Source: Escherichia phage mEp043
Sequence record: PV340537
Direction: 5' to 3' (one strand)
Length of the DNA stretch: 42,880 bases
The translations under genes were made by a program, and so were the position numbers. This document shows, piece by piece, positions 19,903 to 20,557 of this stretch; within the stretch, counting starts at the first letter, position 1, and each line of letters starts with the position of its first letter. Under the pieces are notes generated by a model that had not been told where the DNA came from, did no database searches, and was given only the letters and a program-made list of their open reading frames with translations.

Positions 19903-19927
19903 AGCCGCCATCACGCGGCTTTTTTAT
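19903..19927 (+). terminator. Intrinsic terminator (plus strand)
   Basis: AGCCGC-catcac-GCGGCT followed by TTTTTAT. Confidence 0.65.
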
Positions 19928-19964
19928 GCGCATCGCACGCGCACATCGTAGAAAGTCTTTCAGC

Positions 19965-20020
19965 TGTGAGCCTGGGCAAACCGTTAACTTTCGGCGGCTT
20001 TGCCGTGCGACAGGCTCACG
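19965..20020 (+). promoter_or_regulatory. Large imperfect inverted repeat in the leader of the 155-aa ORF
   Basis: TGTGAGCCTG-GGCAAA ... TTTGCC ... CAGGCTCACG arms; ends 19 nt before the ATG. Confidence 0.45.
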
Positions 20021-20038
20021 CCTAAAAGGAAATAAATC

Positions 20039-20506
20039 ATGGGTCATAAAATTATCACGTTGTCCGGCGCGGCGACGGATGTTCTGTATGCGCTGTTTTT
20101 CCGTGGCGCGCTTCAGTCTGGTGATCTGCCAGCCAAATCTGGTGCTGCTGAGCTTCTAGAGCTGGGATTCGCTGAAACACGCCATACCGCGACGGAGTAT
20201 CAAAAGGAAAATTATTACACCTTCCTGACCGCTGAAGGGCAGGAGTTCGCCATTAAGCACCTGGTGAATACGCGCTTTGGTGTTCCTGCTGGTGGTTATA
20301 TTGGTGGCTCTGTAAATATTCAGTTTGGCCGGATAGAGAACGACCCACGAAAAGGCTATGCCATCAATGTTGGCATCTGTCCCGAAATTAAGACCGGCGT
20401 GAAGCTATCCCCTGAAATGGTAAAAGCGATCTCAGATGTTGTGTCCGAGGAACTGAAGAAGAGTCTTCGGCCAGGTGGCACGATATGGTCAGCGCTGTCG
20501 CGATGA
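20039..20506 (+). CDS. Hypothetical protein (155 aa), accessory gene between lysis cassette and cos
   Basis: ATG with AAAGGA SD; flanked by upstream terminator/inverted repeat and downstream hairpin; no recognisable motif. Confidence 0.65.
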   Translation: MGHKIITLSGAATDVLYALFFRGALQSGDLPAKSGAAELLELGFAETRHTATEYQKENYYTFLTAEGQEFAIKHLVNTRFGVPAGGYIGGSVNIQFGRIENDPRKGYAINVGICPEIKTGVKLSPEMVKAISDVVSEELKKSLRPGGTIWSALSR

Positions 20507-20557
20507 ATGGACGTTTAGACGTCCAAATTGGTGCGAATCAAGTCGCATTCACGCAAA

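Follow-up and report, generated by a model that had tools for sequence, protein, structure and literature searches.

Locus

The window analyzed here is the whole 42,880-nt stretch of Escherichia phage mEp043 (sequence record PV340537), and the subject is a plus-strand open reading frame (ORF) of 155 amino acids (aa) at 20039-20506, together with the 107-nt leader that precedes it. At 19780-20720, the window agrees at every base with Enterobacteria phages mEp213 and mEp043 (Aguilavirus; 100% identity), and its identity to mEp237 is 98.5% across 72% of that length. By this comparison, it is a lambdoid phage of the mEp213/mEp043 type; the mEp043 annotation was carried over to the window by sequence identity, and the mEp043 record ends just short of the terminase small subunit. 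The 155-aa ORF is the final gene on the late-operon strand ahead of cos, has the same orientation as the pR'/Q operon, and is separated from Rz by three small ORFs, of which one is encoded on the minus strand. The leader begins just after an intrinsic terminator, and the gene is followed by a small hairpin, a palindrome, and cos (Table 1). An earlier note made from the letters of this DNA had described the terminator, the leader repeat, the ORF, and the downstream hairpin, and all four lie where it had put them; the ORF also abuts cos, as it had said.

Leader: extent, spread, and cargo

The conserved block begins at the same base (window position 19928) in ten annotated phages, after the T-run where there is one, and its right boundary is always the Shine-Dalgarno sequence before the start codon. 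Across these 10 phages the leader is 92-100% identical and the flanks are dissimilar on either side; identity is 76-100% in 88 of the 90 loci compared. When IMG/VR was searched by protein, which is unbiased as to the leader, the leader was directly upstream in 78 of 80 loci. A scan with its invariant 3' core returned at least 120 IMG/VR contigs, and the core is also present in 32 species-representative genomes, all from Enterobacteriaceae except for one small Archangium contig. This contig (L234, Archangium violaceum, 5.5 kb) is the only genome match to the core outside the Enterobacteriaceae and likely reflects contamination of a myxobacterial assembly. The window holds one leader copy. Rfam gave no matches in the whole window at the gathering threshold and nothing overlapping the leader hairpins at E up to 10, and a literature search on the leader sequence found no relevant paper.

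The gene that follows the leader varies. It encodes a winged-helix protein in mEp237, phi80, and SaltyDalty, proteins with other N-termini in HK639 (HK639_13), CharmingMan, AsXd-1, and FSL SP-016, and a 486-aa glycosyltransferase, directly after the leader, in mEp390 and LMessi. A census of the first ORF after 120 listed leader copies gave at least 53 proteins resembling gp59 of phage N15 and ending in Pro-Gly-Gly (PGG), with at least five kinds of N-terminal domain, at least 14 glycosyltransferases, and several unrelated small ORFs, including an HNH-like one. The HK639 cassette lies inside the tail operon, away from cos, with the major tail gene on one side and the genes for the tail chaperones on the other, and is flanked by annotated terminators. 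A lambda-type cosN was found within 2.5 kb of only 13 of 78 leader copies; proximity to cos is therefore a trait of this phage group and not of the cassette. Judged from these comparisons, the leader is a transferable cassette front end. The earlier note had seen in it an operator or attenuator for this gene. Since the same leader precedes unrelated cargo genes, it is not a gene-specific autoregulatory site, and since it lies downstream of the terminator, it cannot attenuate that terminator.

The 486-aa glycosyltransferase is itself conserved in several HK97-like and other phages, where it is either driven directly by the leader or follows a gp59-like gene; LMessi encodes a further glucosyltransferase and an HNH endonuclease after it. 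The 3' half of the leader recurs as a partial copy in phi80 (L003, 493-533; 41 nt at 83% identity), immediately upstream of rha and overlapping the start of that gene, and the copy is found again in several related contigs.

Leader: predicted fold and covariation

The roughly 55-nt inverted repeat that the earlier note had reported as ending 19 nt before the ATG was found as the core (19966-20019) of a fuller helix. It has perfect 9-nt arms, GTGAGCCTG at 19966-19974 and CAGGCTCAC at 20011-20019, and the 3' arm ends at that distance. In the predicted fold, hairpin 1 is followed by a 13-nt spacer and then by the long hairpin. The lower stem of the long hairpin pairs UCUUU with AAAGG and covers part of the Shine-Dalgarno sequence, the outer stem is formed by 10 invariant pairs (GUGAGCCUG with CAGGCUCAC), and a 6-nt bulge, GUGCGA, lies on the 3' side, which gives a geometry of 10 + 6 + 5 pairs with a 0x6 bulge, or about 21 stacked pairs. 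The 114-nt leader folds at -39.8 kcal/mol (z = -2.5; 3 of 200 shuffles fold as well). This single-sequence statistic is modest, and the case for the leader as a predicted structure rests on the comparison of copies, which is much stronger.

In diverged copies, the 30-nt apical part is swapped for other sequences of 29-43 nt with the pairing kept. In an alignment of 41 sequences, 95.7% of the cells are paired, compared with 28-46% when the 3' partners are slid. Changes on both sides of a pair were found in 5 pairs and 15 cells versus 1.8 and 3.3 in shuffled controls, with at most 1 of 500 shuffles reaching either value. The apical pair at columns 52-77, for instance, is C-G in 23 sequences, G-C in 6, U-A in 5, and U-G in 5, and three of the four hairpin 1 pairs have changed on both sides. 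Nearly all changes on one side alone are compatible with G-U pairing, and this is so for the plus strand only; a minus-strand RNA and a DNA cruciform were rejected on this ground. By this covariation, which supports both hairpins, the leader is a structured plus-strand RNA, and the compensatory changes bear out the structure that the earlier note had proposed. The outer stem, the bulge, and the anti-Shine-Dalgarno strand show zero variation, also in the unbiased set, which suggests that sequence is recognized besides shape.

The predicted probability that the Shine-Dalgarno sequence is unpaired is 0.24-0.46 and is nearly flat from 25 to 45 C. After a hypothetical cut in the bulge, it rises to 0.75-0.99 at 3 of the 6 positions scored. 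An RNA thermometer of the fourU or ROSE type was dropped as a candidate, the GG being predicted as unpaired at 0.24-0.28 throughout 25-45 C.

Protein modules and family

Homologues of the 155-aa protein number 458 in a word-indexed phmmer search, and the exact sequence is on about 600 public contigs, always named "hypothetical"; judged from this distribution, the ORF is a genuine gene. Residues 1-154 match phrog_16910 at E = 1.2e-103, and the family takes in phrog_16910, phrog_17079, and phrog_4365, which are PHROGs of unknown function. No match to the protein was found in Pfam and NCBIfam at E up to 1 or in a PDB sequence search, and PADLOC-DB, a check that the earlier note had proposed, gave 0 families at E up to 1. 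A search of the literature on N15 gp59 and "Fur-regulated protein" found no functional study of the gp59/Orf66 family. With no match to a defense, Pfam, or NCBIfam family, the description of the ORF as an uncharacterized accessory gene in the hot spot between lysis and packaging genes still holds.

The earlier note had recognized no motif in the protein. Three modules can now be proposed. In an AlphaFold2 model built from 121 sequences, residues 10-75 form a winged helix with a predicted local distance difference test score (pLDDT) of about 77-80, within an N-terminal module of 80 residues that has 7 Lys + Arg against 9 Asp + Glu and an isoelectric point (pI) of 5.8; this acidic character of the predicted module argues against DNA binding. 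The middle (residues 79-121 are not resolved by the model) holds a putative remnant of the tail-tip protein J, NIQFGRIENDPRKGYAINVGI, and the corresponding segment is fuller in longer family members. The C-terminal signature consists of an amphipathic helix, PGG, and a short basic tail, with helices modeled at 125-143 and 148-154; P145, G146, and G147 are invariant in the alignments of 12 and 121 sequences. Across the family alignment, the N-domain is near-invariant, the middle is highly variable, and the C-terminal PGG is invariant, and the signature is also found with other N-domains, in members that have the middle in common as well. By these alignments and by modules that match independently of one another, the N15 gp59/phi80 Orf66 family is modular with an exchangeable N-domain (winged helix, AtiEcA-like, or like a fibronectin type III domain of J), and the 155-aa protein is a minimal new member of this known but unstudied family.

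The last slot before cosQ is taken by phi80 Orf66 ("similar to N15 gp59") and by family genes in E. coli prophages, including that of Nissle 1917. The N-terminal 81 residues of Orf66 and the leader are about 86% identical to the window at the DNA level. Prevalence, another check proposed in the earlier note, came out differently for the parts: 122 genomes carry the leader with the N-domain, among them Nissle 1917 and phi80-derived laboratory strains, whereas of 5,426 complete E. coli genomes just 3 have the 155-aa form.

Relation to J and to Tai/Ati

The middle of longer relatives matches PF09327 (Phage_Tail_Tip, C-terminal J domain). The J-like segments of family members span 50-100 residues and are 30-46% identical to J C-termini, including that of the window J, and in a PDB sequence search with the relatives, these pieces matched the F2-pyocin fiber and J-like tip proteins. 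The window protein appears to retain about 20 residues of this segment, the homology of its remnant to J being drawn through intermediate sequences in the family alignment. An AlphaFold2 model of a fuller relative, HK639_13, had a pLDDT of 47.

According to He et al. 2024 (PMC11364771), phi80 orf63, on the opposite strand of this interval, encodes the tail-assembly blocker TaiEcA, Tai escape mutations fall in the C-terminal region of J, orf64 is the late-expressed antidote AtiEcA, tai genes are mostly found upstream of the module for packaging, and among single deletions of orf62, orf64, orf65, and orf66, only that of orf64 lowered the titer. That study found only five Ati versions, and no mention of fusion forms was seen in it. 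AtiEcA and the N-terminus of HK639_13 gave a pairwise E of 7e-6, and profile-profile comparison with hhalign between AtiEcA and the HK639_13 branch gave 94% probability and E = 1.3e-7 over 49 of about 63 mature residues. By these scores, homology exists between AtiEcA and the N-domain in one branch of the gp59 family, represented by HK639_13, AsXd-1, and CharmingMan, in which the domain is fused to J-like segments and the PGG C-terminus. A word-indexed search for AtiEcA homologues returned only 11 short close relatives, and BLAST of AtiEcA against the window protein gave no match.

TaiEcA homologues are located at most 1 kb upstream in 10 of 80 loci of the winged-helix type. In the window, a minus-strand 86-aa ORF at 19513-19773 has the position and orientation of phi80 taiEcA, yet its sequence is unrelated to TaiEcA; it belongs to phrog_21164 and has no Pfam or PADLOC match. 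An alignment of TaiEcA with the window protein (26% identity, 87 aa, E = 0.012 in a nine-sequence database) was taken as chance.

Terminator, promoter search, and expression

The terminator stem, AGCCGC/GCGGCT, has six pairs, five of them G-C, with a 6-nt loop followed by TTTTTT. A scan of 18500-22000 called 11 terminator-like sites versus 3.2 +/- 2.0 in shuffles and listed the site at 19903 at the top. Elsewhere, a hairpin of -7 kcal/mol or better with a T-run adjoins the leader in 101 of 147 distinct contexts, and the stem sequences differ. A promoter scan of the plus strand at 19513-20039 found no sigma-70-like site, and no conserved -10 or -35 hexamers were found across more than 60 aligned leader copies; sigma-54 and sigma-E promoters in the leader were dropped as candidates after their consensus spacing was checked by eye. 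The hairpin after the gene has no T-run and was not called by the terminator scan and is thus not a terminator. The two marks of a self-contained moron, its own sigma-70 promoter and a downstream intrinsic terminator, were therefore both missing from the scans of this locus.

The lack of a detectable promoter and the non-terminating downstream hairpin make late read-through expression likelier than lysogenic expression, and because the leader has no detectable promoter and usually has a terminator immediately upstream, the gene would be silent in the lysogen. By gene orientation, a late transcript from pR' must cross cos to reach the terminase genes. Late read-through is likewise assumed for this region of phi80 by He et al. 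(PMC11364771). Some cargo genes of the leader are annotated with, or resemble, lytic-phase functions, namely the glycosyltransferase and the HNH-like ORF.

The sole nearby plus-strand sigma-70-like site is at 19486-19513 (AGGACA, 16 nt, TAAAAT, with an upstream TG). It would yield a transcript of about 400 nt, antisense to the 86-aa ORF and ending at the terminator at 19903-19926. On the same strand, 19852-19925 (a hairpin, an A/U-rich spacer, and the terminator) gave a weak, sub-threshold Rfam match to isrK, a small RNA of the Gifsy-1 prophage, at 17.6 bits (E = 0.29) versus a gathering score of 50; the stretch may represent the 3' part of a small RNA or nothing more than a terminator.

Features of the locus

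The coordinates of the features are given in Table 1. The cosQ-like motif and cosN were assigned by comparison with the phi80 cosQ annotation and with the annotated 12-nt cohesive end of phage LLS, respectively.

Table 1 Coordinates of features in the window and, in the last two rows, of genes in compared loci outside it (loci numbered L; an empty cell means that no value is given)
Feature	Position	Strand	Remark
Q	16846-17469		mEp043 annotation
pR'/qut	about 17512-17540		mEp043 annotation
Holin	17908-18231		mEp043 annotation
Lysozyme	18215-18691		mEp043 annotation
Rz	18688-19125		mEp043 annotation
Intrinsic terminator	19903-19926	+	Stem 19903-19920, T6 19921-19926; directly adjoins leader
Conserved leader block, 107 nt	19928-20034	+	Left edge just after T-run, right edge at Shine-Dalgarno
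Leader hairpin 1	19928-19942	+	GCGC, 7-nt loop, GCGC (predicted)
Long leader hairpin	19956-20029	+	Lower stem, outer stem, bulge, variable apical stem-loop (predicted)
Shine-Dalgarno AAGGA	20026-20030	+	8 nt upstream of ATG; invariant in all leader copies
155-aa ORF	20039-20506	+	Start ATG; N15 gp59/phi80 Orf66 family (phrog_16910)
N-terminal winged-helix module, aa 1-80	20039-20278	+	Predicted; acidic, pI 5.8
Middle segment, aa 81-122	20279-20404	+	Low confidence, pLDDT < 50
C-terminal helix, Pro-Gly-Gly (aa 145-147), short helix	20405-20503	+	Family signature
Small hairpin GGACGT-TTAG-ACGTCC	20509-20524	+	Begins 3 nt past stop codon
Perfect 27-bp palindrome CGCAAATGATAATCATTATCATTTGCG	20552-20578	.	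Touches cosQ; 46 bp past ORF stop; putative Fur box
cosQ-like GGGTCCT	20578-20584	+	cf. phi80 cosQ annotation
cosN GGGCGGCGCGCT	20607-20618	+	cf. phage LLS annotation
Terminase small subunit (DUF1441)	20724-21224
Terminase large subunit	21224-23326
Window J protein	35930-39706
486-aa glycosyltransferase	L007 2622-4079 (mEp390_054); L009 215-1672; L005 3178-4635; L010 3394-4851		Compared loci
Ati-like N-domain fused to J-like segments and PGG C-terminus	L002 2623-3303 (HK639_13); L006 2628-3566; L008 2615-3508		Compared loci

The palindrome near cos agrees with the 19-bp Fur-box consensus GATAATGATAATCATTATC at 17 of 19 positions, with 0 such sites expected by chance, and the same GATAATnATTATC palindrome is found ahead of cosQ in Nissle 1917, in phi80, and in one E. 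coli prophage. Fur binds upstream of the Nu1 homologues nohA and nohB, and the nohA site is at the equivalent place (PMC2189734). The palindrome is thus a putative Fur box, with binding reported at the analogous nohA site, and it probably accounts for the NCBI name "Fur-regulated protein" on the neighboring ORFs.

An Rz1-like lipoprotein ORF with the lipobox LVVSAC lies within Rz in the +1 frame (18881-19072, plus strand) and is not among the mEp043 features overlapping that stretch. The stretch from Rz to the terminator (19126-19902) has a G+C content of 41% versus 51% for the whole window, a pattern typical of recently acquired accessory DNA; the 155-aa ORF, at 51%, shows no departure from the window average.

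Proposed action and alternatives

The locus is tentatively read, with a chance somewhat below even, as a late-expressed, minimal gp59-family protein behind a portable Shine-Dalgarno-pairing RNA leader, with a role at the tail tip or in relation to Tai. Ordinary transcription would stop at the terminator before the leader, leaving the gene silent in the lysogen, and in the late phase, Q-modified RNA polymerase from pR' would read through the terminator and transcribe the gene, a step taken from the established behavior of lambdoid Q proteins. The leader may then set the level of translation or the processing of its cargo, perhaps by occluding the Shine-Dalgarno sequence, and a cut of the RNase III type in the bulged helix of 21 pairs could relieve the occlusion, in the manner of the lambda N leader; by analogy, the favored view is that translation is partly occluded and may be freed through processing. 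The protein would act through protein-protein contacts during assembly of the tail tip (J). In the family, a J-like core is joined to a head that is either antidote-like or a winged helix, and the genes lie on the late strand and in the Tai hot spot; on this indirect basis, the likeliest role of the protein would be that of a non-essential guard or decoy against tail-assembly-inhibition (Tai) defenses aimed at the C-terminal region of J. A function as a tail-tip assembly or Tai counter-defense protein is thus weakly inferred.

Several points weigh against this reading. A weak or non-sigma-70 promoter may be present. The outer stem never varies, and covariation is therefore silent on that part of the fold; the predicted occlusion of the Shine-Dalgarno sequence is partial only (0.24-0.46 unpaired), and RNase III cleavage of the leader is an analogy, not a result. 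On the protein side, the J-like segment of the window protein is nearly lost (E = 9.6 only against its own J), and the protein has a winged helix instead of the Ati-like domain. No Tai homologue was found in the hot spot of the window. In He et al. (PMC11364771), deletion of phi80 orf66 has no reported titer loss, and it is orf64 that countered TaiEcA. A self-specific decoy finds no support, since the J-like pieces are no closer to their own J than to foreign J proteins.

Two linked, broader readings were also considered and are, as a pair, unlikely to be right, namely, that the leader is an undescribed portable class of cis-acting RNA that marks and controls accessory cassettes of late operons in temperate siphophages of Enterobacteriaceae and that the gp59/Orf66 family, its most frequent cargo, is a modular set of counter-defense proteins. 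The invariant outer stem and bulge would then be recognized by a specific host or phage factor, and tail-tip assembly would be shielded from Tai-type inhibitors by proteins whose core mimics J and whose exchangeable heads (Ati-like, winged helix, and others) bind the inhibitors.

Lambda carries bor in its Rz-to-cos interval, with its own promoter and expression in lysogens, and the earlier note had likewise pictured an insulated, bor-like unit. An autonomous moron of this kind, expressed in the lysogen from its own promoter for a host-benefit or anti-phage function and with the leader as its operator or attenuator, is quite unlikely here. The position in the Rz-to-cos hot spot fits it, this being the predominant site of tai defense genes in He et al. 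(PMC11364771), as do the upstream terminator and the annotated terminators that bound the HK639 cassette, and family members might in principle use their J-like segments to disrupt the assembly of tail tips in competing phages; however, the leader holds no promoter-like site between terminator and ATG and no conserved -10 or -35 in the 60+ aligned copies, PADLOC gave no match, the downstream hairpin does not terminate, the gene is co-oriented with the late operon, and the leader is shared with glycosyltransferase and HNH-like cargo, unlike lysogen-benefit genes. The picture of an insulated, self-regulated moron is probably wrong. A winged helix beside cosQ and cosN also invites comparison with the lambda terminase small subunit, which binds cos via a winged helix (PMC4669245), and the protein might be a DNA-binding regulator of late genes or an accessory to cos and packaging that binds nearby. 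This is likewise quite improbable: no Pfam or NCBIfam helix-turn-helix model (MarR, HxlR, or PadR) matched at E up to 1, the acidic domain (pI 5.8) has a glutamate-rich presumed recognition helix and is swapped within the family for domains unlike any DNA-binding fold, only 13 of 78 cassettes are within 2.5 kb of a lambda-type cosN, and the winged-helix model itself is of moderate confidence only.

The exchangeable ends around a fiber-like core are typical of receptor-binding proteins, many relatives are named "phage tail tip fiber protein" by NCBI, relatives are homologous to J-like fibers of solved structure, and the long predicted C-terminal helix and the placement in the late operon would fit a structural protein. 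A minor virion component, either an accessory mini-fiber or decoration protein that trimerizes via the J-like and C-terminal helix part or a head-internal protein loaded via the C-terminal helix-turn-helix, is nevertheless very doubtful, since the terminal receptor-binding end of J is not what has been retained, the fiber segment is almost absent from the window copy, and poor monomer models give no structural support; phi80 orf66 is also dispensable on K-12, though accessory fibers often are there. For the leader, the sharp boundaries exactly at mosaic joints, the 92-100% identity amid otherwise dissimilar flanks, and the partial 3'-half copy upstream of another phi80 late-region gene could reflect a linker at the DNA level, that is, a recombination junction kept alike by cassette exchange and not a functional RNA. 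Such an origin as the whole account is highly improbable given that the apical stems of diverged copies are replaced by different sequences with pairing intact, compensatory changes are more numerous than in shuffled controls, changes on one side alone fit G-U pairing for the plus strand only, and the right boundary is always the Shine-Dalgarno sequence before a start codon; the linker and RNA readings are not mutually exclusive.

Significance

Should the leader prove to be a functional RNA, phages would have in it a compact natural "expression adaptor" for plugging new late genes into an operon; it would bear on how newly acquired genes are correctly timed in mosaic phage genomes and would be an addition to the families in Rfam, which lacks it. 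Should the gp59/Orf66 family act on the assembly of tail tips, the Tai/Ati arms race would extend to hundreds of prophages, and proteins annotated "hypothetical," "DUF1983," or "Fur-regulated protein" would gain a function. For annotation, the lesson is that a terminator before and a hairpin after a cos-adjacent gene do not suffice to make it a lysogenic-conversion moron.

Comparison with known systems

The closest counterparts of the window protein are phi80 Orf66 and N15 gp59, with which it shares the C-terminal helix-PGG and the last slot before cosQ. Orf66 differs in having 242 aa and a longer middle with a PF09327 match, whereas the 155-aa window protein has the remnant only. AtiEcA (phi80 Orf64) has the hot spot and the late-operon strand of its gene in common with the window protein, and AtiEcA and the gp59-family group have the legacy NCBI name "Fur-regulated protein" in common; the window protein, in contrast, has a predicted winged helix, no detectable similarity to AtiEcA, and no tai gene nearby. 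The likeness to J lies in the 30-46% identical segments that family members share with its C-terminal tail-tip domain (PF09327). Unlike J, the family consists of small cytoplasmic proteins without the J hub or the terminal receptor-binding end, and its helix-PGG end was not seen in the J C-terminus examined. The bor morons of lambda are similar as non-essential accessory genes in the lysis-to-cos interval, but the window gene has no detectable promoter and reads with the late operon.

Leaders that occlude the Shine-Dalgarno sequence and are processed by RNase III are known from the lambda N leader and the inter-cistronic R sites of T7. The leader in the window resembles these in its long hairpin, which is bulged, measures about two helical turns, and lies just upstream of a start codon on a polycistronic phage transcript, with the base of the hairpin predicted to pair with the ribosome-binding region. 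It differs from them in having no sequence similarity to them, in being portable between unrelated cargo genes, and in the sequence invariance of its outer stem and bulge, which goes beyond the demands of RNase III alone. The leader would belong, as a new variant, to a known kind of element, the structured Shine-Dalgarno-occluding leader, and its portability and invariant core are what is most unusual about it.

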